From the IMG/VR virus record IMGVR_UViG_3300033177_000258: 64,000 nt of DNA, one strand, 5' to 3'. The notes below the pieces were generated by a model. That model did no database searches, was not told the DNA's origin, and worked only from the letters and a program-made list of their open reading frames with translations. This document shows, piece by piece, positions 9,905-63,418 of the stretch. Made by a program: the position numbers and the translations under genes. Every line of letters starts with the position of its first letter. Positions within the stretch are counted from its first letter, which is position 1. The DNA comes from a virus (Duplodnaviria > Caudoviricetes).

Positions 9905-9945
9905 AGCCGGCCGCGACGCGGAATACTTCCCAAGAGTGTGACCCA

Positions 9946-10937: not shown

Positions 10938-13049
10938 ATGTCCACCGGAGCCTTCTTCCTAACCCCCTCGCGACCGAAGTTCGTCATGGCCCAGTTGGCC
11001 CAGATGGTTGACTGGGGCGCGTTGATGGTTGGCTCTTCCGTGCATAAGGGCGAGGGGGTCAAGGTGGGAGTGCTGGACACCGGGTGCGCTCGCAACCACC
11101 CCGACCTCAAGGATGCCATCTTCACGTTCAATGACATCAGCGGCGGCAGCAAGGATGATGGCGACGGCCACGGGTGCGTTACCCCTGACAGCATGGTCTA
11201 CTCTTCTCTATGCGGGCTCCAAAACATCGAGACCTTGTTCGACGCAGCCCCAGGCATAGCGCACCTTCTCCCCGATGGTTCGGTCATCAAGGATGTGTCT
11301 CGTTACAGCCTGAAAACATTCTCTTTGGGCGCAGACGGACGGTGCGTCCCCTCTAATCTCAGCCACATCCACAAGTTGGCCTACGCCGGAGAGCTGGTGG
11401 ATGTCGTCACCAGACACGGGGTATTGCGTCTTACGCCGTGGCACCCCGTCTATGTGGTGGGTTCGCGGGCGGGCTCCGAAACGGTTAAGAGGATTCGGGC
11501 CGACGAACTCAGGGTTGGTCATTGTGTCGCGATAGCGCGCCAGCCAGCGGGCGAAGTAGGGGAGACAGTGTATATCCCGCTCAGCCGGCGCTGGGTCTGC
11601 AGGTGGTGTGGCTACGAAGCAAAAGGGGGAAAGAGAGCCACCTGTCGTTCGTGCAACAGGAGGAACTGGCATGAAGGAGCATCCGACCGCTCTATCGCCC
11701 TGGATGAACGACTTGCGTATTGGCTTGGGCTGGTCGTGTCAGACGGTCATGTGGCCAAGAGCGACACTTGTGTCTCGTTCACGTCAAAAGACCCAGAGCT
11801 TCTTAGTATCTTCGAGTCGGTGTCCGCCGAGCTGTTCGGTATTACGAGCAGCCGCCCCCCAAGTCATCCCATAGAAACCCGCCTGCACTCGGTTGACGTG
11901 TGGAGAATGCTTGTGGACGGGCTTGGTATTCCGGCCGGCAACAAGTCGCGGTGTATTGCACTTCCTGAGCTTGTGGCTAAGTCGCCTACGCCCATCATCG
12001 CGGCGTTCGTAGCTGGGTTGGTAGAAGGTGACGGTAGTGTGGGGGAGCAACGGCGTGTCCGTATAGCAACTGGCTCCATCCAGTTTGCCCAAAAGCTCTC
12101 CATGCTTCTGAAGACGATTGGCGTTTCGGCGAGCTACAGTGAAAACCGCTCTGAGGGTGGATTCAAGGTTAAGACCGCGAAGCCATCATATTCGGTGCGC
12201 GTTGGCCGCTGGAGCGCCCTAGACGCCCAGCTTAGGTTCAAAGTATCAGTTGGCGCGGGGATGCGCAAGGAGAGAAAAAGCTCCGAGGTGCTGTCCGTGG
12301 GTCGGTCCTCCTACAATGGCCCGTTGTACGACTTCACCGTTCCCGAGCACCACAACTATGTAGCTAATGGCTTCATCGTGAGCAACACCCACGTCTCTGG
12401 CATCATCGGCGCCCGCGACAACGACGCCGGCATTATCGGCGTCGCGCCTTCCTGTCAGCTTGGCATCTACAAGGTCCTGTCTGACACTGGCTGGGGCGAG
12501 TTCGACTGGTTCGTCAAAGCCATCTATGCCGCCCTGGAAGACGGCTGCCAGGTCATCAACCTAAGCCTTGGCTCCAACGAAACCCCTCCCGAAACCGTAC
12601 ACAATGCCATCCAAGACGCGCGCCGCGCCGGCTGCCTCATCTTCGCGGCTTCGGGCAACGACGGGAACGGTGTACCCGCCACGGGCGACGCGGTGGATTT
12701 CCCGGCTCGTTGGGAAGAAGTCATCGCCGTCGCTGCCGTTGAGCGCGACAGGGCCCACTCCAACTTCAGCTCCCCCGGCCCGAGCGTAGCCATCTGCGCC
12801 CCCGGACGCGACATCTACTCCTGCTGGCCCGAGACAGGCTACGCCCTCGACACCGGCACCAGCATGGCGTGCCCGTTCGTTTCTGGTGCGGCCGCTGTCT
12901 ACTGGTCACACTTCCTGGCCGAGGGCCATGAGCACAAGGACATTGCCCAGCTCGTCTGGGCTCAGATGCAGAAGGACGCACAAGACTTGGGCGACCCAGG
13001 CTGCGACCCACTCTATGGTTGCGGGTTGGTTAGAGTCAAGGTGAACTAA
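10938..13049 (+). CDS. S8 subtilisin-like serine protease interrupted by an intein
   Basis: VLDTG, HG|TH, ASGN, GTSMACP catalytic motifs. Confidence 0.93.
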   Translation: MSTGAFFLTPSRPKFVMAQLAQMVDWGALMVGSSVHKGEGVKVGVLDTGCARNHPDLKDAIFTFNDISGGSKDDGDGHGCVTPDSMVYSSLCGLQNIETLFDAAPGIAHLLPDGSVIKDVSRYSLKTFSLGADGRCVPSNLSHIHKLAYAGELVDVVTRHGVLRLTPWHPVYVVGSRAGSETVKRIRADELRVGHCVAIARQPAGEVGETVYIPLSRRWVCRWCGYEAKGGKRATCRSCNRRNWHEGASDRSIALDERLAYWLGLVVSDGHVAKSDTCVSFTSKDPELLSIFESVSAELFGITSSRPPSHPIETRLHSVDVWRMLVDGLGIPAGNKSRCIALPELVAKSPTPIIAAFVAGLVEGDGSVGEQRRVRIATGSIQFAQKLSMLLKTIGVSASYSENRSEGGFKVKTAKPSYSVRVGRWSALDAQLRFKVSVGAGMRKERKSSEVLSVGRSSYNGPLYDFTVPEHHNYVANGFIVSNTHVSGIIGARDNDAGIIGVAPSCQLGIYKVLSDTGWGEFDWFVKAIYAALEDGCQVINLSLGSNETPPETVHNAIQDARRAGCLIFAASGNDGNGVPATGDAVDFPARWEEVIAVAAVERDRAHSNFSSPGPSVAICAPGRDIYSCWPETGYALDTGTSMACPFVSGAAAVYWSHFLAEGHEHKDIAQLVWAQMQKDAQDLGDPGCDPLYGCGLVRVKVN
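11175..12386 (+). mobile_element. Intein (404 aa) with LAGLIDADG homing endonuclease
   Basis: Starts CVTPDS, block B LTPWHP, LGLVVSDG and VAGLVEGDG, ends NYVANGFIVSN, +1 Thr; removal restores HGTH. Confidence 0.93.
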
Positions 13050-27850: not shown

Positions 27851-28335
27851 TGCCGCGCGGCAGGATGAAGCAGAAGACCAAGGACGAACTCAGAGAAGAG
27901 CTGCGGCTGGCGAAGGAGCGAGAGGCCGCGCTTCGTGACGAGTTGGCCGCCCTGCGCGAGGGCGTCTTGGGCGCCGCGTCGGATGCTCCCATCGTTGTTG
28001 TCGTGGGGCTGAGCGAGACCTTCGAGCCATTCATGGAAGCTGTCCGCCCCGTGCCGGTTCCCGCGTTCGCTATGGATGCTATGGCGGCGCATCTATCCCG
28101 CATGTCTGCCGCGTCATCGCACCGCGAGGTGGATGATGTCGGCCCCAGGGTCACCCAGACTGAAACCCACATCCGCGAGCTCTACAAGCGTATTGGCGAA
28201 TTGTCCGAAGTCCAGCAGAAGACGATGGAGTCGCTGGGGGGTTTGTCGGCCCTGATTAGGAGCATCGTGGATGGCAGGGAGCTGGGCATCTTCGGTGGAG
28301 AGGAGCAGCAAACGTCAACTACTGTTGGGCCCTAA
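27850..28335 (+). CDS. Coiled-coil hypothetical protein, 3' end runs into cassette E2
   Basis: Coupled ORF. Confidence 0.6.
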   Translation: MPRGRMKQKTKDELREELRLAKEREAALRDELAALREGVLGAASDAPIVVVVGLSETFEPFMEAVRPVPVPAFAMDAMAAHLSRMSAASSHREVDDVGPRVTQTETHIRELYKRIGELSEVQQKTMESLGGLSALIRSIVDGRELGIFGGEEQQTSTTVGP

Positions 28336-28627
28336 AAACCCGCAGCTCGCAGCTAGCGAAACAACCGCCGCCGCGTATGGCTGATTGACTGCAGCCCTGC
28401 GGCCAATTTCGACCGCAGCGAAGTGGTCGGCTGGCCCAGCGAGACCGCACGACACACAGAGAAACTGGTCGCGAGTAGGACGGCTCTCCTTCGCGACATG
28501 GCCGCACCCAGGACAAGTACGGCTGGTGTTCCTGGGGTCTTCCTTGACAAACGGCACACCAGACAGGGCGGCCTTGTATTCCACTGATAACGGAGCATTG
28601 ACAGTAAATGAGCGAAAAAGGTTATGC
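28298..28627 (-). ncRNA. Cassette E2: tnpB-less omega-RNA unit (E1/E4/E6 family) with putative guide at 28313-28298
   Basis: About 265 bp matching the tnpB 3' end, ending AGTAGTTGAC at 28314; 5' leader GCATAACCTTTTTCG...GGAATAC shared with E4. Confidence 0.75.
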
Positions 28628-28676
28628 TTCTTGCCCCACTGCGTCTGAAGTCTCGCGGCATCATGAGGGTAAGATT

Positions 28677-29801
28677 GTGCGTACTGACATCTTAATCCCC
28701 TGCGCCGCATACCACCGCGAGCGCTTCCTCAAGGCTGTGCCCCTGTGGAACGAAGTCGCTCAGAGCAAGCTGGTGGGGCGCATCCTCGTCGTCTGCCAGG
28801 GCTGGTACCCCGTGGAAGACCAGCTCGGCAAAGTGGACGCCCTCATTGACGTTCCATCTGACAAGTGGCAGCCCAGCGTTGCCCGCAACGCCGGCCTCTC
28901 TGCACTCGAATCCGAGCTGGTGCTGTATTGTGACGCGGATGTGGTCATGCTCCCCGACACCGTGCGGGCGCACGTCTACGCACACAAGGGGTCCGAGGAG
29001 CCCAGGCTGACGGCCAACCTGCACAAAGACATCGCCACTGATGCCCCCCTGCCTTTTACTGTCGAGGAATTGGAAGCGTTGAACGTTCCCGACATGTGGC
29101 GCTCGATGCGCGTTGACTGGCGCGTGGCCATACTCGAAGAGTGCCGCTGGCTGGAGTACCCGCCTTCAGTGCCTCTCTGGTCGCTTGGCGGGGGCAGTGG
29201 TATCTGCCTTCCCCGCGAGTGGGCCCAGGCGGTCGGTGGCTGGAACGAAGACTTCCAGGGGTGGGGCTACGAAGACGCCGAGTTCTGGTACCGCTGCCAG
29301 AAGAGCGGCCTCAAGTTCGAGTTCATCAAGCAGTACGCCTACCACCAGCAGCACGAGGTGGACATCCCGCGCCGCATCGCCGACTCGCAGGAAAACTCGC
29401 AGATGTTCACAATCGAGCGCGACAGTTGCAAGGTCACCTACATCGCTGATGCCGTGACGGATGACCTGGCCCAGCTTGTGCTCGACTCCGAGTACAATGC
29501 CGAAGTCATCGGCGCCTTCCCGCTCAACATGGCCAGCCCCATGGGCATCCGCTCCGTCCCGGCCGCTGCCGACCAGCCGGCCGAAGCGTTCCGCGCCTTC
29601 GCGCGCGGTTGGTACCTGTGCGATATGCGGGGCGACCGGCCCGAGCCGTCCAGTTCCGACTGGCACAGTCTCACCCACTGCGGTAGTCACACCGTCCAGC
29701 TAGGCGGGTTGGACTACATCCCCAAGTCTTCAACCGGGTTCGTGCAGCACCGGGTATCTGGAGGAGCTCATAATGTCGAGACAAGTAGCGGTCCTTACTG
29801 A
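28677..29801 (+). CDS. Glycosyltransferase family 2 (GT7C-like C-terminus)
   Basis: ARNAGL, CDADV, GGWNEDFQGWGYED. Confidence 0.88.
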   Translation: MRTDILIPCAAYHRERFLKAVPLWNEVAQSKLVGRILVVCQGWYPVEDQLGKVDALIDVPSDKWQPSVARNAGLSALESELVLYCDADVVMLPDTVRAHVYAHKGSEEPRLTANLHKDIATDAPLPFTVEELEALNVPDMWRSMRVDWRVAILEECRWLEYPPSVPLWSLGGGSGICLPREWAQAVGGWNEDFQGWGYEDAEFWYRCQKSGLKFEFIKQYAYHQQHEVDIPRRIADSQENSQMFTIERDSCKVTYIADAVTDDLAQLVLDSEYNAEVIGAFPLNMASPMGIRSVPAAADQPAEAFRAFARGWYLCDMRGDRPEPSSSDWHSLTHCGSHTVQLGGLDYIPKSSTGFVQHRVSGGAHNVETSSGPY

Positions 29802-29810
29802 CGCTGCCAC

Positions 29811-30998
29811 CTAAGCGGCTTCTTGCTTGCGCGAGCTATGTGCCGGGCGTCCACCGGAACTACCTGCAACCAAGGCCACAGGATACTTGTAGCGGATGAC
29901 GTTGGGCACGTCACAGCCTGGAGCAAGCTCGCCGCGCATACCGATGCAGCGGATGTTGGTAGAGCCTACCACGTCGCGTGGGGCGCCAAAACCGCATTGC
30001 TTGCAGCGGTAGGTCCGCTGGCACTTGTTCCTGGTTCCGCAAACGGGACACGTTTGGGAACTGTACGCCTCGTCTACGGTGATTGCTCCCGCAGTCTTGT
30101 AGTCGAGTTGCGTAATGAGCCTGCGGTTGCAGGCGGTTGAGACTTGTTGGGCAGTCTTTCGAGACATCTTCTGTGCTGCGTCATTGAACGGTTCGCCGAC
30201 GTAGCACTTTGCTCCGGGGAAAGTGTCAACGACCACCCGAGTGGCTTTGTGGGTGATGTCGTTGATGCGGTTCTCCGACTTCTTTAGCAGCTTGTGTTTG
30301 CGGCGCTGGAGCCGGCCGTACTGACGGGAACCCCGGTGGCAATTCGACAGCTTGCTGCGGAGAGTTGCGAGACGTTTGGCGCGCCACTGAACCGTCGCCT
30401 TGGCTTCCCGACCCGAGACGAGTACGGTTTTTTCTCCGTCTGTGGCAGCAAGGAGAGTATTGATGCCGAGGTCAACGCCGATGGTGGAGCCGGTCGGGAT
30501 GGCGGGCTCCTCGCATTGACAAACTAGGATGATTGCACCGTAGGCGAGTCTAGCTTCCATGAGTCGGCCGGGCAGTTCGAATGGGAGACGGACAAATAGG
30601 TAACCAGAATCCCCGTGAGGGAGACGGACACTTCCATTTCTGACCACGGCACCCTGATTGGTGTAGGGGATGTCTCTGAACTCTGGTTTGTGATTGGGGT
30701 AGGATGACCCCAGGCCTCCCCTTCTTTTTGCTGTTGTGGACTTCAGGGCTTCGCAGAACTCGCGGATGATTTCCTGTACTGACTGGCTGTGGAGATTGGG
30801 GTAACGCCCCTTTGCCCACCTTCTCCAGCGCGCCTCAGAAGGCCACTTTAGTTGGCGACGACGGATACGCAGATGGCGCTCCACCAAGTCAGACCATAGG
30901 CGGCCGGAATCGCTTCGGGCAGCCGTAAAGATAGTCCACTCAGAACGAGAGTGCGGGAGCCAGTCGAGTTTTACAGACCTGTAAACTATGGGCATCAC
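29811..30998 (-). CDS. tnpB: TnpB, cassette E3 (second family)
   Basis: GVDLG, YVGEP, RDVVGSTNI, CPVC/CKQC; omega end ...GCAGCGTCA at about 29799. Confidence 0.9.
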   Translation of the reverse strand: MMPIVYRSVKLDWLPHSRSEWTIFTAARSDSGRLWSDLVERHLRIRRRQLKWPSEARWRRWAKGRYPNLHSQSVQEIIREFCEALKSTTAKRRGGLGSSYPNHKPEFRDIPYTNQGAVVRNGSVRLPHGDSGYLFVRLPFELPGRLMEARLAYGAIILVCQCEEPAIPTGSTIGVDLGINTLLAATDGEKTVLVSGREAKATVQWRAKRLATLRSKLSNCHRGSRQYGRLQRRKHKLLKKSENRINDITHKATRVVVDTFPGAKCYVGEPFNDAAQKMSRKTAQQVSTACNRRLITQLDYKTAGAITVDEAYSSQTCPVCGTRNKCQRTYRCKQCGFGAPRDVVGSTNIRCIGMRGELAPGCDVPNVIRYKYPVALVAGSSGGRPAHSSRKQEAA

Positions 30999-31030
30999 TG
31001 GAAGTATTTCGTGCTACAGGGAGTAGCGAC

Positions 31031-32080
31031 ATGAGACAGGCAGCCGTATTGACCAGCGTACCCATCCATCTGCTCGGGGAGGGGCAGCGTATCCCGCAGA
31101 TGCTGGGGCGCCTAAGCGAGCTGCCCGGCGTCGAGACGCACGTTGTGGAGACGCACATCTACGTGCCCGGCGCCGGCGCCGTCTACACCGGGGAGAAGGT
31201 CAAGGAGGCTCTCGACACCATCTTGCGTCAGGGCCCCACGGTCATCATCATCGCCCAGCCAGTGGCAGCGGCGCTACCCGCATTGTTGGAAGCGCAGAAG
31301 CGCGGGGCTAAACTGGTGTACGACCGCTTCGAGAGCTGGAAGGACTTCCCCGGCAACGAGACCTGGTACCGCCCCCAGCAAGAGACCGCCATCATTGTGG
31401 CCAGCGATGGCCTGGTCTCGACCTACCGCGACTCGCTCTTCGATTCCTATGACCGCCCCAAGCTGCTGCTGCCGAACGCCGCCAGCGACGCGCCACTGTG
31501 GCCCCAGACACAACTCAAGGGCTCGCGCGGCCGCAGTGTGGCTCTGGCCAGCTCGGCCGTGTACGTGGGGAGCATGGACCCCCGCTACATAGACATGGAC
31601 GCCATGCGCCATGTGGGAGAGGCGCGCCCGAGCGCCTTCTACGGCAAGCCTCCGGGCCAGCGCATCATGGAGGACGGGATGTCGCCGGTGCAGTACGGCG
31701 CCTCGGGCTGGCTGGTGGGTTGGGTGAACCATGTCAACCTGAGCTTCGCGCTCGCCTCCGGCGACGGCAAGTACAATGACCGGCGCAAGGTGGGTTTGCT
31801 CCCGTTCCTCGACATCCCGTTGACCGAGAAGGTCTCCCCCATCAAGTGGTGGGAGTACCTGCTGGCCGGCGTTCGCCCGGTCACCATGCACCTGAGCCAG
31901 GTCGCGGAAATGCCCTTCGGCGTCTACACCGACGACATCAACGCGTTCCTGTACGCGGCCATCACCGCTGCCCCGTTCTCCGATGAGGAAGCTCGCGAGG
32001 CTTCCAACTGGGTGCGCGAACACCACATGTGGGCGCACCGCGCCAAGGTTCTCAACGCCTGGATGGAGGGCTTGCTCTGA
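31031..32080 (+). CDS. GT-B (GT4-like) glycosyltransferase
   Basis: KLVYD, LLPNA, YVGSM, GLLPF...SPIK.WEYL.AG, H.W.HR. Confidence 0.75.
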   Translation: MRQAAVLTSVPIHLLGEGQRIPQMLGRLSELPGVETHVVETHIYVPGAGAVYTGEKVKEALDTILRQGPTVIIIAQPVAAALPALLEAQKRGAKLVYDRFESWKDFPGNETWYRPQQETAIIVASDGLVSTYRDSLFDSYDRPKLLLPNAASDAPLWPQTQLKGSRGRSVALASSAVYVGSMDPRYIDMDAMRHVGEARPSAFYGKPPGQRIMEDGMSPVQYGASGWLVGWVNHVNLSFALASGDGKYNDRRKVGLLPFLDIPLTEKVSPIKWWEYLLAGVRPVTMHLSQVAEMPFGVYTDDINAFLYAAITAAPFSDEEAREASNWVREHHMWAHRAKVLNAWMEGLL

Positions 32081-32922: not shown

Positions 32923-32977
32923 ATGGGCATAACCTTTTTTCGTCAATGTATGTCACAGCATGGAATACTTCATGGTG

Positions 32978-34126
32978 ATGAAGACTACACTCAAGCTGAA
33001 GCTGCTCACAAGCCCGGACCAGCACCAGGCCCTACTCACTACTCTGGAGGTCTTCAATGCCGCCTGTAACTACCTGGCAGAAGTGGCATTCGACAACCAT
33101 ACCGCGAACAAGCTGAAGCTGCAGAAGCTGGCCTACCATGAGACCCGAGAGCGCTTCATGCTCCCGGCCCAACTGGCCGTTCGCGCAATCGCTAAGGTTT
33201 GCGAAGCCTACAAGCGGGACAAGTCAACCCGACCAACCTTCCGGCCGCATGGGGCAGCCATCTACGACCAGCGGGTCCTCTCGTTCAAGGGTCTGGACAC
33301 CGTGTCCATACTCTCCCTCTCCGGCCGGCTCAAGATTCCAATCGTAGTCCACGGTTACGCCCACGACCGAATCACAGCCTACGGCATGCGCGGCCAGGCC
33401 GACCTGCTCTACCAGCGCGGCACGTTCTACCTGTGTGTCGTGGTTGAGCTTCCCGAACCTCCTCCTGGTGAGACTAAGGACTGGCTCGGCGTAGACCTCG
33501 GCATGGTCAACATAGCCACCGACAGCGACGGAGAGAACTTCAGTGGTGCCGAGGTCAACGGCCTCCGTGCCCGGCACAATGCCCTTCGGTCCAAACTCCA
33601 GGGCAAGGGCACGAAGAGCGCCCGTCGTCGTCTCCGTCAACAGAGCGGACGGGAAAACCGCTTCGCCCGAGACGTAAATCACAGAATCTCCAAGAAGCTA
33701 GTCGCGAAAGCCAAAGGCACCGAGCGTGGCATTTCCGTAGAAGACCTGACGGGAATCCGCGAGCGGGTAACGGTTCGCAAGGCACAGCGTCGCGCGCTAC
33801 ATTCTTGGGGCTTCTACCAGTTGGCCTCGTTTGTCGAGTACAAGGCTGCTTTGGCTGGTGTGCCGTTTGTCAAAGTAGACCCCAGGAATACCAGTCGAAC
33901 ATGTCCTTGGTGCGGTCATGTCGCGAAGGCGAACCGTCCTACTCGCGACCAATTCCTCTGTGTGTCGTGCGGTCTCGCTGGGCCGGCCGACCACTTCGCT
34001 GCGGTCGAAATCGGCCGCAGGGCTGCAGTCAATCAGCCGAACGCGGCAGCAGTCATATCGCTAGCTGCGAGCCCTAAGGATTGCAACAGGGTAGTTGACA
34101 AAACCAGCCAAAAACCTTCTGGGTGA
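32978..34126 (+). CDS. tnpB: TnpB, cassette E4 (full length)
   Basis: N-terminal HTH region, GVDLG, SVEDL, ADHF, zinc finger; omega end GTAGTTGAC at 34091-34099. Confidence 0.93.
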   Translation: MKTTLKLKLLTSPDQHQALLTTLEVFNAACNYLAEVAFDNHTANKLKLQKLAYHETRERFMLPAQLAVRAIAKVCEAYKRDKSTRPTFRPHGAAIYDQRVLSFKGLDTVSILSLSGRLKIPIVVHGYAHDRITAYGMRGQADLLYQRGTFYLCVVVELPEPPPGETKDWLGVDLGMVNIATDSDGENFSGAEVNGLRARHNALRSKLQGKGTKSARRRLRQQSGRENRFARDVNHRISKKLVAKAKGTERGISVEDLTGIRERVTVRKAQRRALHSWGFYQLASFVEYKAALAGVPFVKVDPRNTSRTCPWCGHVAKANRPTRDQFLCVSCGLAGPADHFAAVEIGRRAAVNQPNAAAVISLAASPKDCNRVVDKTSQKPSG

Positions 34127-34134
34127 GAACGGTC

Positions 34135-37100
34135 ATGAGTAGTTCGCCGAATCACGGGTTTGTGAACCTGCACGTCCATTCCGAGTACAGCGCGATGGAC
34201 GGCGTAAGTACGTGCAAAGAGTTGGTGAAGCGCGTCGGGGTGCTCGGGCAGACGGCCCTGGCTCTCACGGACCATGACGGTCTGTACGGCGCGGTTGACA
34301 TCTGCGAGAGCGCCTTGGCGAAGGATGTCAAGCCCATCGTTGGTTGCGAACTGCGGTTCGTGCCCGACATCTCCGAGAAGGTGCGGGGCTGGCACATCAC
34401 TGCTCTGGCGCTGACGGAGCAGGGGTACCGCAACCTCTGCGACTTGGTGACGGAAAGCTACCGCCCCAAGAACTTCTTCTACAGCCCCCGCATCCCTCTG
34501 CAGTCGCTTCTGGAACGACAGGAGGGTTTGGCGCTGCTCTCTGGCTGCTGGTTCGGGTACCCGGCCCAGACCTACGAGCAGACCGTCCACGGCGGCCGCG
34601 ACCGGATGGCTCAATTCCAGGAAATCACCAGCGCTCTGCAGTCGGCCTACGGCGAGCGCTTCCTCTTCGAGCTCTTCACTGGCGACTACGCCCATTCTCG
34701 CGAGGCCATCACGTTCCTGCTCGACGCCTCGGCCAAGTGGGGCATCAAGACTGTTGCGACCAACGACTCCCACTTCGCCGCCCCCGAGGACTGGCGCAAG
34801 GCGGAGTTGATACGTCGCATCCGCATGAAGGGCAAGGACGAAGAGGGCAATGCCATGCCCCAGCACCAGTACCTCATGGGTGAGCAGGAAATGCGCACAC
34901 TGCTCCCAGAGGAAGCGGTGGACAACACGGTGATGGTGGCCGGCTGGGCGGAGTACGCCTTGGACCTGGCCATTGACCGAGAGGGCCACGTGCTGCTGGA
35001 CAAAGTGCTGCAGCGCCTGCCGAAGCTGCCTCTGGCTGAGGGACAGACGGAGTGGGGCGCATTCATTGAGGCCATCAAGCAGGGGTGGCAGAAGAGGATG
35101 GGCTACCTCACCGAGGAGCAGCGGCCCATCTACCACGAACGTCTACTGCGGGAAATCGAGGTCTTCAAAGAGACCGGCCTGGCCGGCTATATGCTCATTG
35201 TGGCCGCGATGACCGATTACTGCGCGGAAAACGGCATCCTGCGGGGCCCCGGCCGAGGCTCGGCGTCAGGGTCCCTGTGCTCCTTCCTGCTGGGTATCAC
35301 CGACCTTGACCCCATAGCCTCCGGCTTGTTCTTCGAGCGGTTCCTGGACGCCCGGCGCGCCAGCATGCCAGACATTGATGTGGACTACGACCCGGACGAC
35401 CGGGAGCGTGTGTTCGCCTATCTGCAGCGGACGTATGGTGTTGACCACGTGGCGCGCATCCTGACCTTCCAGCGGTTGGTGGGTAGCAGCGCGGTCAAAG
35501 ACGTGGGCTCCATGATGGGGGTCAGCTACGACGAGCTCAACAAGCTCACTTCGGCCATCGAGGACTTCGATGAACTGGATGTGAGCGAAGGCGCCCCGCC
35601 CTCCGACAAGAACAAGGAGGCGCTCGGGGTCATCGCTCAGAACCCGGACCTCGCAGCGGTGGTGCAGCAGGCCAAGCTGATTTCTGCCGACGAGAAGACC
35701 AAGACCAAAGGGGTCATCCGTCAGGTAGGTGCCCATGCGGCCGGCGTGGTTATCGCCCCCGGCCCGGTGCGCTACCTCTCTCCCACCCAGCTCACCAAGC
35801 GCGATAGCAACCTGGAAGTCTTCCAGTGGGACATGGGCGCAGTAGACAAGATGGGTCTGCTGAAGATTGACGTTCTCAACGTCAGGACCCTCGGCATGGC
35901 GCGCGACATCATCAGCCTGGTCAAGAAGCGGCATGGGGTGGAGCTCGACTGGTACTCTATCCCAGTCGAAGACCCCGCCGCCTACGAAATGGCCGGGCGC
36001 GGTCGCACTACCGCCATCTTCCAGCTTGAGAAGCGCACGGCCCAGGAGCCACTGAAGAAGATTAAGCCCAACTCGCTGTTGGACTTGGCTGTCGTTCTGG
36101 CGCTCAACCGTCCGGGCCCCATGGAGTACATGGAAGAGTACGCCATCTGCAAGAACGACCCGTCGCAGATAACCTACGACCTGCGCGAATGGGAGTCGGT
36201 GCTGGCCGAGACTTACGGCATCATGGTCTACCAGGAGCAGGTCATCCAAGCCCTGCAGGCGCTGGGATTCGACTTCACCGAAGCCGACGACTTCCGCCGA
36301 GGGATGGCCAAGAAGAAGCAGGACCTCATCGAGGCGGCCAAACTCAGGGTCGTGCCCAAGATAATCGAGCGTGGGTACTCCGAAGCTCACGCTGAAGCCG
36401 TCTGGGCGAAGATAGCCAAGTTCGGCGGCTACGCGTTCAACAAAGCGCATGCTGTGGCGTATGGCGCGATTTCCGCCCGCATGCTGTACCTGAAGACCCA
36501 CTACCCTGCGGAGTACATGGCAGCCGCTCTGACCTCCCAGGACAAAGAGGAGTTCTTCACCAGATACATCGAGGAAGTCTCGCGCCTGGGTCTGCGCTTG
36601 CTGCCTCCCGACATCAACGAGGCCAGCGAGAGCTTCACTCCAAGCGACGGCGCTGTGCGGTTCGGTTTCTCTCAGATTTCCCACATCGGCGCCGTCGCCA
36701 AGGCCATAGTGGCGGCCCGCCTGGTCCGCCCCCGAGGATGGCGCGGGCCCGAGCCGGAGAACGGGGTGTACCCGTACCAAGACCCACTAGACTTCTGCCG
36801 GCGCCTGAAAGACCACGGCATGAACCGGCGCCAGTTGGATGCTCTGGTCTGGGCTGGGGCGTTCGACGCCTTCTGCCCTTCGCGGGCTTTCCTGGCCGAC
36901 AAGGTTGACCAACTCATGGGCATGGCGAAAGCCGGCCGCACCTCAGTGGAGGCTTTGGTGACGTGGGAGTCTCTGTTGGCGGACGCGGAACTGCGCCCCG
37001 ATGACGAGGACCTGCTGGCCGACAAGGAGCAGGAGTTGTTGCGCTGCTCGCCGCGTCGCATGGCGCAGGACATCAGTTTGCGTGAGCGCATAGGAAAGGG

Positions 37101-37386
37101 TACCGCGCCCCTGTCCCAGCTCGAACCGCAAGCCAAGGGCGTCAAAGTCTGCGGGCGCATCCTCGAAATCGGTAAGCGCTCTGGCAGGAAGAACGACTAT
37201 GCCTACCTGCAGTTGAACGACGGGACGGCCATCATGCGATGCCTGGCGTTCAAAGAAGAAGTCATCCAGCAGCTATCGGACGAAATAGGTCCTCAGGCAG
37301 CAGTGGTGCTACAGGGAGACGTGAGTGATGACGGGACGGCGTTCTTCATTCGCAAAATAGTGCAGTCTGACGCCGGCGCAAGTTAG
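34135..37386 (+). CDS. dnaE: DNA polymerase III alpha subunit
   Basis: PHP HVHSEYS/TDH/TNDSH, GRGSASGS, MPDIDVD, GLLKID, YAFNKAHA, OB fold. Confidence 0.96.
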   Translation: MSSSPNHGFVNLHVHSEYSAMDGVSTCKELVKRVGVLGQTALALTDHDGLYGAVDICESALAKDVKPIVGCELRFVPDISEKVRGWHITALALTEQGYRNLCDLVTESYRPKNFFYSPRIPLQSLLERQEGLALLSGCWFGYPAQTYEQTVHGGRDRMAQFQEITSALQSAYGERFLFELFTGDYAHSREAITFLLDASAKWGIKTVATNDSHFAAPEDWRKAELIRRIRMKGKDEEGNAMPQHQYLMGEQEMRTLLPEEAVDNTVMVAGWAEYALDLAIDREGHVLLDKVLQRLPKLPLAEGQTEWGAFIEAIKQGWQKRMGYLTEEQRPIYHERLLREIEVFKETGLAGYMLIVAAMTDYCAENGILRGPGRGSASGSLCSFLLGITDLDPIASGLFFERFLDARRASMPDIDVDYDPDDRERVFAYLQRTYGVDHVARILTFQRLVGSSAVKDVGSMMGVSYDELNKLTSAIEDFDELDVSEGAPPSDKNKEALGVIAQNPDLAAVVQQAKLISADEKTKTKGVIRQVGAHAAGVVIAPGPVRYLSPTQLTKRDSNLEVFQWDMGAVDKMGLLKIDVLNVRTLGMARDIISLVKKRHGVELDWYSIPVEDPAAYEMAGRGRTTAIFQLEKRTAQEPLKKIKPNSLLDLAVVLALNRPGPMEYMEEYAICKNDPSQITYDLREWESVLAETYGIMVYQEQVIQALQALGFDFTEADDFRRGMAKKKQDLIEAAKLRVVPKIIERGYSEAHAEAVWAKIAKFGGYAFNKAHAVAYGAISARMLYLKTHYPAEYMAAALTSQDKEEFFTRYIEEVSRLGLRLLPPDINEASESFTPSDGAVRFGFSQISHIGAVAKAIVAARLVRPRGWRGPEPENGVYPYQDPLDFCRRLKDHGMNRRQLDALVWAGAFDAFCPSRAFLADKVDQLMGMAKAGRTSVEALVTWESLLADAELRPDDEDLLADKEQELLRCSPRRMAQDISLRERIGKGTAPLSQLEPQAKGVKVCGRILEIGKRSGRKNDYAYLQLNDGTAIMRCLAFKEEVIQQLSDEIGPQAAVVLQGDVSDDGTAFFIRKIVQSDAGAS

Positions 37387-37445
37387 AGAAGCGCGGAATA
37401 CTTCTATGCGAGCAAGTAGAACATAGTCTCATATATGAACTTCCA

Positions 37446-38555
37446 ATGCAACGCACTCTCTACATCCAATTGGTAGTTTCCCCCGAACAAGGCAGAGCCA
37501 TCGGCGTCACGATGGCTCTGTATACGGCTTGCTTCAACGCGGCCACTCGGTTCGGTTGGGACAACCATACGGTAAATGGAGTGGAGCTACATAAGGGCAC
37601 CTATGCTACCCTTCGCGCCCAGTACCCCGAGCTTCCCTCCCAACTTGTCTGCTCTTCTCGCGTCAAAGCGACAGAGTCACTCAAGTCAGTCCGCGCCCGT
37701 CTCGCCAAGGGCAAGAAAGCATCCTGCCCGCTCTCCCGTCTTCAGTCGGTACGCTACGACGCCCGTTCCTACACCATTTCCCTCACCGAAGGCTGGGCCA
37801 CTCTCGCCACGGTCGCCGGCCGTCAGCGCGTCACATTCGACGCCGGCTTCACCAGGCTCCAGACCTGGAAGCCCACCTCGGCCGAACTCGTCTACCGTCG
37901 CAACCAGTTCTGGCTCCACGTCGTTGTAGAGTCCCCCGCCCCCGTCTACACCGCAACCGGCGAGGTTGTCGGTGTAGACTTGGGCATTGTCCGCCCGGCC
38001 GTCACCTCCGAAGCCCAGTTCTTCGGTGAGCGGCGCTGGCGCAACGTCGAACAGCGGTACTTCCGTCTTCGCAGAGCCTTGCAGGCAAAGGCCACTCGCT
38101 CCGCCCGTCGTAAGCTACGTAAGCTCTCGGGCAAGCAGGCTAGGTTTCGCCGCGACTGCGACCACGTACTGTCCCGCCGCCTTGTAGAGTCCGTTGACCC
38201 AGGAGCCGTACTCGTCTTCGAGAACCTGACTGGAATCCGTGACCGCGCTGACTTCGGCCGGCATGGCAACCGTCGTCTCCACGGGTGGAGCTTCGCCCAA
38301 CTGTTCGCGTTCACGGCCTACAAAGCCGAGGAAGGCGGCAAGACGACGGCGACGGTAGACCCGCGCGGGACGAGCCAGAAATGCTCGCGGTGCGGACACG
38401 TCGCGCGGGGCAACCGCGTCAGCCAGTCAGAGTTCCGGTGCCAGAAGTGCGGCTTTCGAATCAACGCTGACCTCAACGCGGGACGAAACGTGAAGGGGAA
38501 GTACCTGGTCCGAGAGGGCAGCGCCGTCTCGGGCGGGCCGCGTCAACCGGCCTAA
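37446..38555 (+). CDS. tnpB: TnpB, cassette E5 (third family, full length)
   Basis: GVDLG, VFENL, NADLNAGRNV, CSRC/CQKC; omega end GTAGTTGAA at 38595-38603. Confidence 0.93.
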   Translation: MQRTLYIQLVVSPEQGRAIGVTMALYTACFNAATRFGWDNHTVNGVELHKGTYATLRAQYPELPSQLVCSSRVKATESLKSVRARLAKGKKASCPLSRLQSVRYDARSYTISLTEGWATLATVAGRQRVTFDAGFTRLQTWKPTSAELVYRRNQFWLHVVVESPAPVYTATGEVVGVDLGIVRPAVTSEAQFFGERRWRNVEQRYFRLRRALQAKATRSARRKLRKLSGKQARFRRDCDHVLSRRLVESVDPGAVLVFENLTGIRDRADFGRHGNRRLHGWSFAQLFAFTAYKAEEGGKTTATVDPRGTSQKCSRCGHVARGNRVSQSEFRCQKCGFRINADLNAGRNVKGKYLVREGSAVSGGPRQPA

Positions 38556-38632
38556 TGCAGCGTGTTGTTTGCGGCTGCAAGCTACCTTTGGGTAGTAGTT
38601 GAATCGTAAGATTGTCACATTGAGGAGCTGGT

Positions 38633-39346
38633 ATGCGTCTTTCTATCCTAACTCCAACAATCAGGGGTAGCCGCTGCGATGCGCTCTCTCGGGTAGTTGG
38701 CGACCTGCGCCAACATTGGGATGTGACTTGGTGGCTCTGCCCCAATGCTCCTGGATGGGACGCCCGGCCGCCGCTGTTTGCTCGGGTTGTGCCCCTGGTG
38801 TTCTCTGGCCCGGTGCCGGTTCTCTCTCGCATCAACCAGGCGCGCGAACTGCTGAGGGTAGCGGCATCGTCGTGGCCGGCCGACGTGGTTGTGTGGCTGG
38901 ACGATGACATGACACCCACGACCGAGCAGCTACACCAGCTTGCGTCCACGGCCATCCGTTCCGATACGCGAGGGCTTCTCGTCTCGCCTGTGATGCGGAA
39001 CCGACATAGCACCGATGACTACACCTGTGCCTGGGTCTTCACCCAGACTGCCGTGGAAGTTCGTGGAGCGGACCTGGACTTGTCCATCCACGGCCTGTCT
39101 TTCCTCCCGTCATCCGTATCCCGTGAAGATAGGGGATTCGTATGGGCCCACGGAGTGGGACTCGGTTGTGTCGCTCACCCCTGGGCCTTCTTGCTTGAGT
39201 TCGCCTTCCCTGCCGCCGAGGTGGCTGACGACGAGTGGTTGTCGCGCGCGTTCGCTGCGAGCGGGCGCACTGGCATCATTGTTGACTACACGCTTGACGT
39301 GGGGCACATTGATGCAGATAAGGAGCACTCATGCCCAGAAGTCTAA
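38633..39346 (+). CDS. GT-A-like glycosyltransferase
   Basis: WLDDDM, GVGLGC, DD, paralogous to 32080. Confidence 0.65.
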   Translation: MRLSILTPTIRGSRCDALSRVVGDLRQHWDVTWWLCPNAPGWDARPPLFARVVPLVFSGPVPVLSRINQARELLRVAASSWPADVVVWLDDDMTPTTEQLHQLASTAIRSDTRGLLVSPVMRNRHSTDDYTCAWVFTQTAVEVRGADLDLSIHGLSFLPSSVSREDRGFVWAHGVGLGCVAHPWAFLLEFAFPAAEVADDEWLSRAFAASGRTGIIVDYTLDVGHIDADKEHSCPEV

Positions 39347-60041: not shown

Positions 60042-60323
60042 GCAAGACGACGGCGACGGTAGACCCGCGCGGGACGAGTCAGAAGTGCTCGCGGTGTGGG
60101 CACGTTGCGCGGGGCAACCGCGTCAGCCAGTCAGAGTTCCAGTGCCAGAAGTGCGGCTTTCGAATCAACGCTGACCTCAACGCGGGACGGAATGTGAAGG
60201 GGAAGTACCTGGTCCGAGAGGGCAGCGCCGTCTCGGGCGGGCCGCGTCAACCGGCCTAATGCAGCGTGTTGTTTGCGGCTGCAAGCTGCCTTCGGGTAGT
60301 GGTTGACGGTGGATGTTTACTAC
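60042..60323 (+). ncRNA. Cassette E7: tnpB-less omega-RNA unit (E5 family) with guide from 60308
   Basis: 266 bp nearly identical to 38338-38603, ends TTGAC at 60307; TATATT immediately upstream. Confidence 0.8.
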
Positions 60324-60345: not shown

Positions 60346-60783
60346 ATGTTCACAACGGGAATATCCCAATTGTTGGCTACCGCTAGCGAACGCGTGTCCA
60401 CGCCCGAGGGTCTGTTCGCGGCTCTTGGGCGCCTGGAGACGTTCATCGTGGAGCTCTCAGAGTCGCTGAGCGAGAGCAAACCCGAGCACGCCGTCGCCGC
60501 CGCGTTTCTTTCGGACGATGACATCGTGTCGGCTGTCCGCAGTATGTGCGCCGAGTATCTTCTCTCGGCCTGGTTCATGGGCAGCCTCAACGAAGCCATC
60601 AAGTCCAACTCGATTCCGTCGCAGCGCTTCACACCAGACGCCATTGTGAAAGCCATGACCAAGTTGCAGCGTATGGCCAAGCCGGTGGGCGAGACGGGAG
60701 CGAAGGTCGAGCAAGCCCTGGAAGCACTCATGCCCGCAGAAGGCACCGCAGCACCAGTTGCACTATCCGAGAAAGGATTGTAG
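60346..60783 (+). CDS. Hypothetical protein
   Basis: ORF in operon. Confidence 0.55.
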   Translation: MFTTGISQLLATASERVSTPEGLFAALGRLETFIVELSESLSESKPEHAVAAAFLSDDDIVSAVRSMCAEYLLSAWFMGSLNEAIKSNSIPSQRFTPDAIVKAMTKLQRMAKPVGETGAKVEQALEALMPAEGTAAPVALSEKGL

Positions 60784-60799
60784 CCAGAGAGGAATCGCA

Positions 60800-63418
60800 A
60801 TGTCAAACAAAGTGGATAAGAGCCCGGTCGTCAGCACGTCTGTCCGTAGTCTCGCTGCCGCCATCGGCGTCAAGGAGCTGGATGTCTCGATTGCCAAGAT
60901 GGCGTTCGTGCAGGGCATGAAGCGCGAGCAGATTTCCACCGCGCTCGGGCTCAGTTTCCGCAACGTGCAGGCCCGTCTGCACACGTTCGCGCAGTTCCAT
61001 AAGGCGGCCGACATGCCCCCCGTGGACGCCGTTGATGCGCTGATGGGAATGCACGACGACGACCTTGAGTACACCCCGCCTGCCGAGCGCTACCGCAAGC
61101 GGCTTCAGGCGCAGGCACAGGCCATTGCCCGCCTGCACGAGTCGCTCAACAAGCGACAGGTTGTCATTGACAACGTGGTCGCGGCCCTCGTCGCCGAGCT
61201 GGGCACCTACGACCCGTCTCCCTATACGCCCATCCCGATGGAGGGCCGCAAGGGCCGGCCCGAGTACGCCATGCTGGAGCTCAGCGACTGGCAGTTCGGG
61301 TCGAACTGGACTGGCGAAGACGTGGCCGGTCTGAACGAAATGAGCACCACCATCCTGGAGCAGCGCGTCGAACTGCTGACCCAGCGCGTGCTCCACCTCA
61401 TTGACCTGCAGCGCTCCGCCGTGAACATCCCATGGCTGGTCATCAACGCCCTGGGCGACTTCATCGAGAACGAAATCATCTGGGAGAGCCAGGGCACGTA
61501 CATTGATATGAACGCCTCCGACCAGATGATGGCGTGCCTAGAGTCCATGGAGAAGATGATGGTGACGTTCCTCCAGCACGGCGGCTTCGAGGAAATTAGG
61601 ATGTACTGTTTCCCCGCTGGCACGCCGGTCCTAATGGGCGACCTCAAGCAGAAGCCCATCGAGGATGTGTCGGTAGGGGATGAGGTCATCACGCACACGG
61701 GAGCGAGGAGAAAGGTTACTCGCACCGGCTCCCGTATTGCTGGTTCGGTCGTATCCATCGAAGCGGAGGGTTTGCCCAAGGCCATCAATGCGACTCCCGA
61801 GCACCCATTCTTCGCCATAAAGGGCGACGGGGTGGTTTGTGCTCGCTACCCATCTTTCCAGAAGATGGGACGACGTTGTTGGCTACAAGAGCGCGACGTA
61901 GAGCACCACCCATGTTGCAGTTGCAATTCCAGACCCAATCCCAAGGCGGAGTGGGTGAAAGCGGCCGACCTCGTAGAGGGGGATTACTTGCTGGTTCCCA
62001 CTACGTCGGGCTTGGTGGACAACCCGACCCCAATTGGCCCTGACCACGATGCCTTCTCTGGGTGTGTTGTGCGGCGATACGGAGAGAGGTTTTCGGTTAG
62101 CAACTCGGAGCGCGCAGCCATGCAGGAACGTATGGGTGAGGTCAAGTCCATGCTGCCATTCGAGTTCTCTCCCCGCAATATGCGCATACTTGGTTTGTGG
62201 GTGGCAGAGGGTAGTGTGGGGGGTCCGACTGAGGGACAGCCCAATTCGCTCAGCTTCTCGTTCGGGGCGCATGAGGCGGAAACGCTGGCGCGCGATGTCG
62301 TTGAGTGGGCGCGGGATATGGGGGTGTCTAATGAAGACATCCGGCAGAACCTCCAAAATGAGAATAAATCTGCATTGGTAGTTACCCTGAACAACACGAT
62401 GCTAGCCCGTCTCTTTGTCTACCTGGCCGGGAAGGGGGCAGCGGAGAAGAGCCTCCATTCGTCGCTGCTGATGATGGACCCATCGCTCCAACGGGAGCTG
62501 CTGATGGGCATGTGTGACGGCGACGGGACACGCTATGAGAAGGGGGCTTGTAGGGGTGCGCATCTGCGCTACTACACAGTATCGTCTTCACTGGCTGAAG
62601 ACGCCAGGAGATTGGCTCTTCGCTGTGGTTTCCTGACATCTAATCAGGTGAGTGAGAGAGGAGACGGTCGTCTGCCCCAGCATTCCGTATGCCTCTCCCA
62701 CCCGGATATCCCAGGTTCGGGGGACGGGAACGCGGGGAGGACGAAGCGTTGGGGAGGGTACATCGCGTTGCCCATCAGACAGATAACGGCGGAGACCGCC
62801 GAGACTGTGGTATACAACCTGGAAGTCGAGATTGACCACTCGTATGTGGCAGGAGATGCTGCTGTTCACAACTGCGTGGCAGGTAACCACGGCAGAATGG
62901 GAAAGAAACCAAACTCTATGCACTGGAAGAACAACTGGGACTTCCTGCTGTACCGCTTCCTGGCGCGCCGCTTCAAGAACGAGCCCCGCGTCAAGTTCAT
63001 CATCGGCACGTCGCCCTGGCTCGCCTACCGGCTGCCGCAGGCCCCGCGCTGGAACCACGTCATCCTGCACGGAGACACCATCCCGAACAACCTGGGCATC
63101 CCGTACTACGGCATCAACCGCGAGGTCGCCAAGATGGCAACCCTGACGAACATGCCGGTGCACCTGGTCCACCTCGGCCACTTCCACCAGCCGTCCATCC
63201 TGGACAACACCTACGGCGCCAAAATCATCAACGGCTGTCTCACCGGCGCCTCGCCGTTCTCAGTGGGCAAGTTGCTGATGGGTGGCCTGCCGCAGCAGTT
63301 GCTGTTCGGCGTTCACCCGGAACACGGGCGCACCTGGAACTACCCGGTGCTGCTCGCCAACATGCCGGAAGTCACTGCCGATGACGAAGGCGTCTACTCG
63401 TCCTACGTCGAGGAGTAG
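60800..63418 (+). CDS. Calcineurin-like metallophosphoesterase/nuclease with N-terminal HTH, interrupted by an intein
   Basis: SDWQ.G, LGDFIE, GNHGR, HGD, GHFH. Confidence 0.85.
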   Translation: MSNKVDKSPVVSTSVRSLAAAIGVKELDVSIAKMAFVQGMKREQISTALGLSFRNVQARLHTFAQFHKAADMPPVDAVDALMGMHDDDLEYTPPAERYRKRLQAQAQAIARLHESLNKRQVVIDNVVAALVAELGTYDPSPYTPIPMEGRKGRPEYAMLELSDWQFGSNWTGEDVAGLNEMSTTILEQRVELLTQRVLHLIDLQRSAVNIPWLVINALGDFIENEIIWESQGTYIDMNASDQMMACLESMEKMMVTFLQHGGFEEIRMYCFPAGTPVLMGDLKQKPIEDVSVGDEVITHTGARRKVTRTGSRIAGSVVSIEAEGLPKAINATPEHPFFAIKGDGVVCARYPSFQKMGRRCWLQERDVEHHPCCSCNSRPNPKAEWVKAADLVEGDYLLVPTTSGLVDNPTPIGPDHDAFSGCVVRRYGERFSVSNSERAAMQERMGEVKSMLPFEFSPRNMRILGLWVAEGSVGGPTEGQPNSLSFSFGAHEAETLARDVVEWARDMGVSNEDIRQNLQNENKSALVVTLNNTMLARLFVYLAGKGAAEKSLHSSLLMMDPSLQRELLMGMCDGDGTRYEKGACRGAHLRYYTVSSSLAEDARRLALRCGFLTSNQVSERGDGRLPQHSVCLSHPDIPGSGDGNAGRTKRWGGYIALPIRQITAETAETVVYNLEVEIDHSYVAGDAAVHNCVAGNHGRMGKKPNSMHWKNNWDFLLYRFLARRFKNEPRVKFIIGTSPWLAYRLPQAPRWNHVILHGDTIPNNLGIPYYGINREVAKMATLTNMPVHLVHLGHFHQPSILDNTYGAKIINGCLTGASPFSVGKLLMGGLPQQLLFGVHPEHGRTWNYPVLLANMPEVTADDEGVYSSYVEE
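61607..62872 (+). mobile_element. Intein (422 aa) with LAGLIDADG homing endonuclease
   Basis: Starts CFPAGT, ATPEHPF, LGLWVAEG and LMGMCDGDG, ends VHN, +1 Cys. Confidence 0.93.

Follow-up and report, generated by a model that had tools for sequence, protein, structure and literature searches.

The 64,000-nucleotide stretch of viral DNA analysed here (IMG/VR record IMGVR_UViG_3300033177_000258, Caudoviricetes; hereafter the window) carries, between two genes of a glycosyltransferase cluster, a cassette named E3. The gene on its left encodes a GT2-type glycosyltransferase (28608–29801, plus strand; Pfam Glyco_transf_7C and Glyco_tranf_2_2), and the intact gene on its right (31031–32080, plus strand) encodes a protein of 349 amino acids (aa) that has few relatives and no Pfam match. 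E3 is read from the opposite strand. It contains an intact tnpB gene (29811–30995, minus strand; 394 aa; Pfam OrfB_IS605 and Cas12f1-like_TNB, PF01385 and PF07282), an omega-RNA scaffold that overlaps the 3' end of tnpB and of which at least the 3' part can be placed at 29799–29888 (minus strand), and a short 5' region (30996–31022, minus strand). As judged from comparisons of these sequences with their relatives, E3 appears to be a transposase-less TnpB/omega-RNA cassette in a large phage, located exactly at the end of a native overlap of 29 nt between the GT2 gene, of which it forms the last 29 nt, and the 349-aa gene.

The start of the downstream gene is found twice, once on each side of E3. 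The left copy, X (29760–29798, plus strand), comprises a ribosome-binding site and nine codons (MSRQVAVLT) followed by a stop, the Shine-Dalgarno sequence GGAGGAG being 6 nt upstream of the ATG at 29773; it is orphaned and kept as the 3' end of the GT2 gene. The replacement, X' (31019–31054, plus strand), has its own Shine-Dalgarno sequence (GGGAG, 7 nt upstream of the ATG at 31031) and eight codons (MRQAAVLT) that open the 349-aa open reading frame. The original prediction had described both starts, the intact frame at 31031 and five synonymous codon changes between the copies, and all of these were recovered, the changes affecting Gln, Ala, Val, Leu and Thr codons. Beyond them, X' shows one Val-to-Ala change and lacks one Ser codon; its Val codon is unaltered in strain L001. 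The two copies share 14 of 20 nucleotides. When a 7-residue peptide was sought in six frames at a match of at least 6/7, X and X' were the sole sites in the window, and 20 shuffled windows gave one match in total. Nucleotide-only local alignment of the cassette flanks did not rise above shuffles for any cassette, E3 included, and the signal linking X and X' therefore lies at the protein level; such duplicates show only as peptides or by comparison with cassette-free relatives. An extension of the duplication to about 60 nt (a 13/17 match of 29745–29763 with the promoter region of E3) was rejected as likely due to chance, because the promoter region is homologous to that of a related cassette found on contig L009.

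Relatives without E3 indicate which copy is the native one. Three such lineages (L002–L004, L134–L136 and the P0003 contig), whose homologues of the 349-aa protein are 62%, 43% and 44% identical, respectively, keep an overlap of 23–29 nt between the two genes, the GT2 stop falling within codons 8–10 of the downstream gene; in one distant lineage, L133, homologues of both genes are present without overlap. The cassette-free homologues of L002–L004 and L134–L136 open with a peptide of the MPKQVVALI or MQVAALI type that overlaps the end of GT2 as the orphan does, in agreement with what had been anticipated from the window, and the left copy can therefore be taken as native. The gene start of L003 equals the orphan X in length and pattern, the GT2 homologues of L003 and L004 terminate in ..GPY-stop inside the next gene, and the window and L003 share a conserved GT2 C-terminus (HN.ETS.GPY). 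These data show that X is the native start and X' a diverged duplicate, the novel copy. X is retained because it doubles as the conserved GT2 C-terminus; the orphan start is thus preserved by selection on GT2, not for a guide function.

The right boundary of E3 was defined by a family comparison including its 3' end, the phage copies of L008 and L009 and about 70 bacterial or metagenomic relatives. Sequence conservation among these roughly 75 copies ends after ..GTCA, the following base being usually C in the bacterial copies and G, C and A in the three phage copies. The conserved scaffold consists of four helices and compensatory changes affect 14 of the 18 predicted pairs in an alignment of 51 sequences; a long-range helix joins an internal GACRC with the terminal GYGTC, of which E3 has its own compensated variant. 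In E3, the last base of the scaffold pairs with 29799, and the guide is therefore the complement of 29798–29779. This predicted 20-nt guide (29779–29798, minus strand; register uncertain by 1 nt) matches the window at up to three mismatches nowhere but at its own position. The proposal that the guide covers the orphan copy, with an omega-RNA extending across 29798–29780, is thus supported by the family comparison, which puts the scaffold end at 29799. No Rfam family matched in the window, scaffold included. The TGA stop of GT2 (29799–29801) is the complement of the terminal TCA of E3. The L008 copy likewise supplies, through its terminal TCA, the stop of a convergent gene for an SNF2 helicase. 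Taken together, X, which directly follows the last scaffold base, is the predicted guide carried by the omega-RNA, the terminal TCA supplies the GT2 stop and X' restores the downstream gene.

The protein encoded by E3 matches the structures of ISDra2 TnpB in profile comparisons (E 6e-17). Asp175, Asp341 and the four Cys of the CxxC..CxxC zinc finger are invariant across the family. The canonical RuvC-II glutamate is replaced family-wide, a Tyr aligning to Glu278 of ISDra2, and an invariant glutamate, Glu309, lies 44 residues downstream of the replaced position. In TnpB clades with a rearranged RuvC-II, an alternative Glu takes the place of the canonical one (Altae-Tran et al. 2023, PMC10691335); E3 resembles them in both the replacement and the invariant alternative Glu about 44 residues downstream. 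Glu309 is a candidate for the substitute catalytic residue, and the Tyr at RuvC-II represents a variant active site and is not evidence of inactivity. In viral and metagenome collections, no relative of E3 is closer than 63% and 58%, respectively, and the phage clade found in the protein index includes only L008 and L009 besides E3. The cassette of L009 (L009:1150-2540), which is on another contig, is 76% identical to E3. The paralogue of L008 (L008:4001-5038), which belongs to the same phage or to a sister phage, is missing about 57 residues at its N-terminus and retains an intact scaffold; it may be a guide-only cassette served in trans. The ratio of nonsynonymous to synonymous divergence (dN/dS) is 0.14 between the tnpB genes of E3 and L009, whose synonymous divergence (dS) reaches 1.2, and 0.35 for the 5'-truncated copy of L008. 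Both tnpB and the scaffold are thus under purifying constraint. E3 could also be viewed as an immobile and functionless relic, X' being a compensatory repair of a once-disrupted gene. Such a view would account for the lack of TnpA and of a left end, and finds parallels in the truncation and relaxed dN/dS of the L008 paralogue and in the internal deletion of another cassette, E2. However, the E3 frame is full length with its catalytic Asp and zinc finger intact, its dN/dS is low, and its scaffold helices have been kept through compensated changes, which makes an inert remnant very improbable.

The left end of E3 departs from that of its bacterial relatives. These occur as tnpB-only elements in multiple copies. 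Their left end measures about 110–145 nt, includes hairpins and is bounded, where the copies cease to be alike, by YTAC or YTAY (occasionally YTAT). In E3 and L009, the left region is reduced to 27–35 nt and holds a promoter-like motif only, with no insertion sequence (IS) left-end hairpins. This motif, GAAATACTTC in E3 (31010–31001), is located 5 nt before the ATG of tnpB, and homology with L009 ends near 31021. In both phage elements, tnpB begins 5–8 nt after a GGAATACTTC-like motif. At one mismatch or less, GGAATACTTC matches the window 12 times (1.7 expected), including 4 matches before tnpB genes, and it is probably the −10 region of a phage promoter yielding near-leaderless mRNAs. Its sites, among them those at 9920, 16822, 31001, 32962, 37395, 45995 and 53921, are found 5–30 nt upstream of all tnpB starts and of several other genes. 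No tnpA turned up adjoining any cassette, the window not having been searched exhaustively for this gene.

Directly outside the 5' boundary of E3 lies a CTAC (31023–31026, minus strand) that matches the left-flank motif of the family, a match that may be a coincidence; L009 has no CTAC or YTAC at the equivalent boundary. This motif raises the question of an ordinary insertion of the IS200/IS605 type, in which a TnpA acting in trans would have placed E3 3' of CTAC (31026–31023, minus strand) after a tandem duplication had separated the two genes. The empty site would then have been ..TTAC|GTAG.., and the end of GT2 would have formed an ATGA overlap of start and stop. The role of TnpB would be only to restore the element after its excision, and X' would have diverged neutrally. 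Under this scenario, the CTAC at the end of the L009 homology finds its explanation, the target-adjacent motif (TAM) and the guide are canonical with respect to the postulated empty site, and non-overlapping genes do occur in a relative, L133. However, E3 lacks left-end hairpins and has only 27 nt from CTAC to the ATG, YTAC is missing from the same boundary of its sister L009, and the postulated duplicated intermediate was seen in no relative, four lineages keeping the overlap. In addition, diverged flanking duplicates recur at the cassettes E5 and L009, an indication that such duplicates arrive together with the cassette, and the gain or loss of the cassette E4 between close strains is recombinational rather than a precise cut-and-paste event. 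An ordinary insertion is therefore regarded as unlikely. The plus-strand TTAC (29795–29798) was also considered as the site of a canonical insertion later inverted in place, but this was rejected, as single-strand transposition fixes the orientation and this motif corresponds to Leu-Thr and Pro-Tyr codons.

The recurrence of the E3 layout can be seen in detail at E5 (37446–38555). As stated in the original prediction, E5 belongs to another TnpB family (the two proteins are about 25% identical) and shows the same arrangement. What is duplicated and diverged here is the tail of DnaE. E5 splits this tail, the real one being left of the cassette and an orphan tail directly following the scaffold, and both are homologous to the single tail of the cassette-free L002 (region 37330–38700). 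The left copy keeps a TTCAT flank and differs from the guide at positions 4, 7, 10 and 13, i.e., at all third codon positions of the first four codons (Arg-Lys-Ile-Val). A scan of viral sequences for E5 relatives returned nothing close. The cassette of L009 is flanked on both sides by a diverged repeat made of a terminator half and a promoter motif, and the first bases of its guide match the left copy of this repeat at 9 positions out of 10.

E4 (32960–34126; region 32923–34155), the most instructive of the sister cassettes, provides a presence/absence polymorphism with co-converted flanks. It is absent from strain L001, which is 99.5% identical to the window on both sides (compared with L001:2744-2764), and 5 of the 23 single-nucleotide polymorphisms (SNPs) between the window and L001 fall within 10 nt of the E4 junctions (Poisson 6e-8). 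Over its first 12 nt, the E4 guide equals the reverse complement of the sequence at which DnaE starts in the empty allele, beside GTTAAC; the carrier allele has synonymous changes (two SNPs) in this GTTAAC hexamer and at seed position 4, and a new DnaE start and N-terminus. The guide-matching copy of E4 is inverted relative to the gene. This pattern is the signature of a cassette gained or lost by recombination, with conversion tracts that are short, and not of a cut-and-paste transposition. Microhomology-mediated template switching at the scaffold end was rejected as a general explanation, since it fits E4 (GTTGAC versus GTTAAC) but not E3 or E5.

Such junctions could also have arisen if the cassette simply marks the crossover of two diverged phage lineages, X coming from one and X' with the downstream gene from the other. 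The recoding would then reflect lineage divergence under protein constraint, without any selection for immunity. The differences between X and X' are indeed mostly synonymous and near saturation, as between orthologues; the bases adjacent to E4 differ from those of an otherwise 99.5%-identical strain, as for DNA from a diverged donor; and nuclease genes at exchange boundaries are reported in phages (PMC10055350). Yet a right-end copy starting exactly at guide position 1 in E3, E5 and L009 is not explained unless the nuclease or its RNA is involved, and no donor lineage with an X'-type start was found among the relatives of the 349-aa protein. A hybrid junction of this kind is compatible with homing rather than opposed to it; as an explanation on its own, it is thought to be improbable, somewhat more so than an ordinary insertion.

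In the reading that we prefer, E3 spreads by RNA-guided homing, and the following model can be proposed. The TnpB–RNA complex would cut uninterrupted GT2/349-aa junctions in co-infecting relatives. The break would be repaired from the cassette-bearing genome, and the cassette together with X' would be copied in, a process amounting to RNA-guided intronless homing or allele exclusion. The carrier would be spared, as its allele differs from the target at the recognition site: X is preceded by the scaffold and would thus have no TAM, and X' mismatches the predicted guide at 6 positions out of 20 (3, 5, 6, 9, 13 and 15), 4 of which are within the first 12 nt, i.e., the seed; X' also lacks a codon beyond guide position 20. 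Given the seed requirements of TnpB that Karvelis et al. reportedly described in 2021, the mismatches of X' should then prevent cutting. The inteins with homing endonucleases found in the same genome also count in favour of homing.

Three origins of X' would fit these data: recombination at staggered points, the same process between diverged lineages, in which case X' would have been diverged at once, or a prior duplication followed by canonical insertion at CTAC. The recurrence of the layout at E5 and L009 and the lack of a duplicated cassette-free intermediate favour the first two. Most likely, X' would date from the entry of the cassette, two genome copies that may have belonged to diverged lineages having recombined at staggered points; of the products, those with both genes whole would be the sole survivors. 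Its later divergence would have been favoured by escape from self-cutting and by the loss of a direct repeat able to delete the cassette.

Several observations weigh against homing of E3. The predicted native target is preceded by GCTA (CTAG in the other register), not by the YTAC of the family, and the flank before the protospacer is ACTA or GCTA in the distant E3-free alleles; cutting is therefore doubtful, unless the phage clade has relaxed or altered its TAM use. For E3, this flank mismatch is what weakens the homing reading most. The closest E3-free relatives have only 62% protein identity and match the guide at 15 positions out of 20; no real target allele has been seen. The mobility of E3 is undocumented, and the presence/absence polymorphism found for E4 has no counterpart for E3, as every close strain found and compared (L001, L007 and L139–L141) carries it. 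With a dS of 1.2 between the tnpB genes of E3 and L009, the near-saturated synonymous divergence of X' is expected from age alone, and drift after release from dual coding, or an origin in another lineage, would look the same as immunity changes. Finally, the canonical RuvC-II glutamate is missing and the predicted activity leans on the proposed alternative, Glu309. On balance, homing with self-immunity is a plausible, though unproven, reading, and we consider the explanation of E3 as a whole to be probable by a modest degree.

The use of TnpB as an RNA-guided homing nuclease is established for IS605-type elements (Meers et al., PMC10055086). As in IS200/IS605 elements such as ISDra2, the nuclease of E3 has RuvC and zinc-finger motifs, its scaffold overlaps the 3' end of tnpB and the guide lies just outside the right end. 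Unlike them, E3 has neither the Y1 TnpA that mobilises such elements, nor a left end, nor their subterminal hairpin ends, and its near-leaderless tnpB is joined to a promoter-like motif of the phage. It also differs in being located in a gene cluster of a lytic-type phage, flanked by a diverged target duplicate that keeps the host gene whole, and its presumed target is the allele of a rival genome, not its own excision scar.

For the protein endonucleases of phages, intronless homing is established, together with an immunity based on substitutions. E3 resembles SegF, SegG and MobE, which cause localized marker exclusion in T-even and other phages, in that its nuclease gene is wedged between conserved genes, its presumed target belongs to the neighbour gene of cassette-free relatives, self-protection would involve nucleotide substitutions and flanking markers are co-converted, in the present case at E4. 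It differs from these enzymes in that recognition would rely on an RNA guide copied from the flank, not on a protein, and in that a spare gene end is included. E3 resembles the nuclease-dead repressors TldR (bioRxiv 10.1101/2023.11.30.569447) in that a mobile genome encodes a TnpB relative next to a divergent version of a gene, another version of which is matched by the guide. Unlike TldR, the E3 protein keeps both catalytic Asp, the zinc finger and its full length, the guide-matching copy directly follows the scaffold, and the missing canonical Glu is a family-wide rearrangement common to multi-copy insertion sequences; a TldR-like repressor role was rejected in view of the retained catalytic residues. 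A 2026 review mentions TnpB homing into co-infecting phages, as 'non-restorative homing', as a theoretical possibility only (PMC13565253). Our searches of the literature returned no account of TnpB cassettes in phages that come with a spare gene end.

The window belongs to a phage-like genome of about 130–215 kb, as indicated by exact protein matches on metagenomic contigs of 132–215 kb. It encodes DnaE, NrdD, a UDG-HD protein, a PD-(D/E)XK nuclease and large Ig-domain and DUF4815 proteins. The closest relatives of the TnpB proteins are from Chloroflexota-type metagenome-assembled genomes, and we infer a large phage of a Chloroflexota-type host as the source. The window contains at least five TnpB-related cassettes of three families. 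Inteins with homing endonuclease domains of the LAGLIDADG type are present in two of its genes (10938–13049 and 60758–63418), one of which encodes a subtilase, and selfish nuclease elements abound in this genome.

Some of the other cassettes are partial. In E2 (28315–28600, minus strand), a promoter-like motif is joined directly to what is left of a family-2 tnpB, its last ~270 nt, with the omega-RNA scaffold. Strain L140 has a full-length tnpB at the place of this internally deleted cassette (L140:2-815), so that cassettes are turning over within the phage population. E2 is located in a 47-nt overlap that the cassette-free L003 has between a 155-aa gene and GT2, and the N-terminus of GT2 differs between the window and L003. 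E7 (60050–60310) retains a 3' piece of a tnpB of the E5 type, an intact scaffold and, beyond it, a different guide. At the right end of E1 (763–785), the guide of a partial family-2 cassette covers the ribosome-binding site and start codon of a 1683-aa gene at 786.

More generally, transposase-less TnpB/omega-RNA cassettes of large phages may act as RNA-guided free-standing homing elements that gain access to essential or overlapping genes because they bring along a guide-mismatched spare copy of the severed gene end ('home and rescue'), the displaced native end serving as a guide against rival alleles. At least two TnpB families of a single genome would have developed this strategy. This broader proposal is tentative, its chances being close to, but below, even. 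The anatomy of E3 appears solid; its function is plausible and testable but unproven, chiefly through the TAM mismatch and the absence of an E3-free close strain. The case lends itself to direct testing, since the nuclease, the guide, the presumed target and the immune copy are all defined. If true, it would reveal a second natural lifestyle of TnpB besides keeping insertion sequences in place, namely as an RNA-programmed analogue of the homing endonucleases of phages, able to pass from one co-infecting phage to another with no transposase. Thanks to the spare gene end, it would be understandable that cassettes can reside among tightly packed and overlapping phage genes without burdening the phage, and synonymous recoding would provide a natural built-in self-immunity, as in engineered gene drives. 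The layout also suggests how guides could be retargeted in nature.

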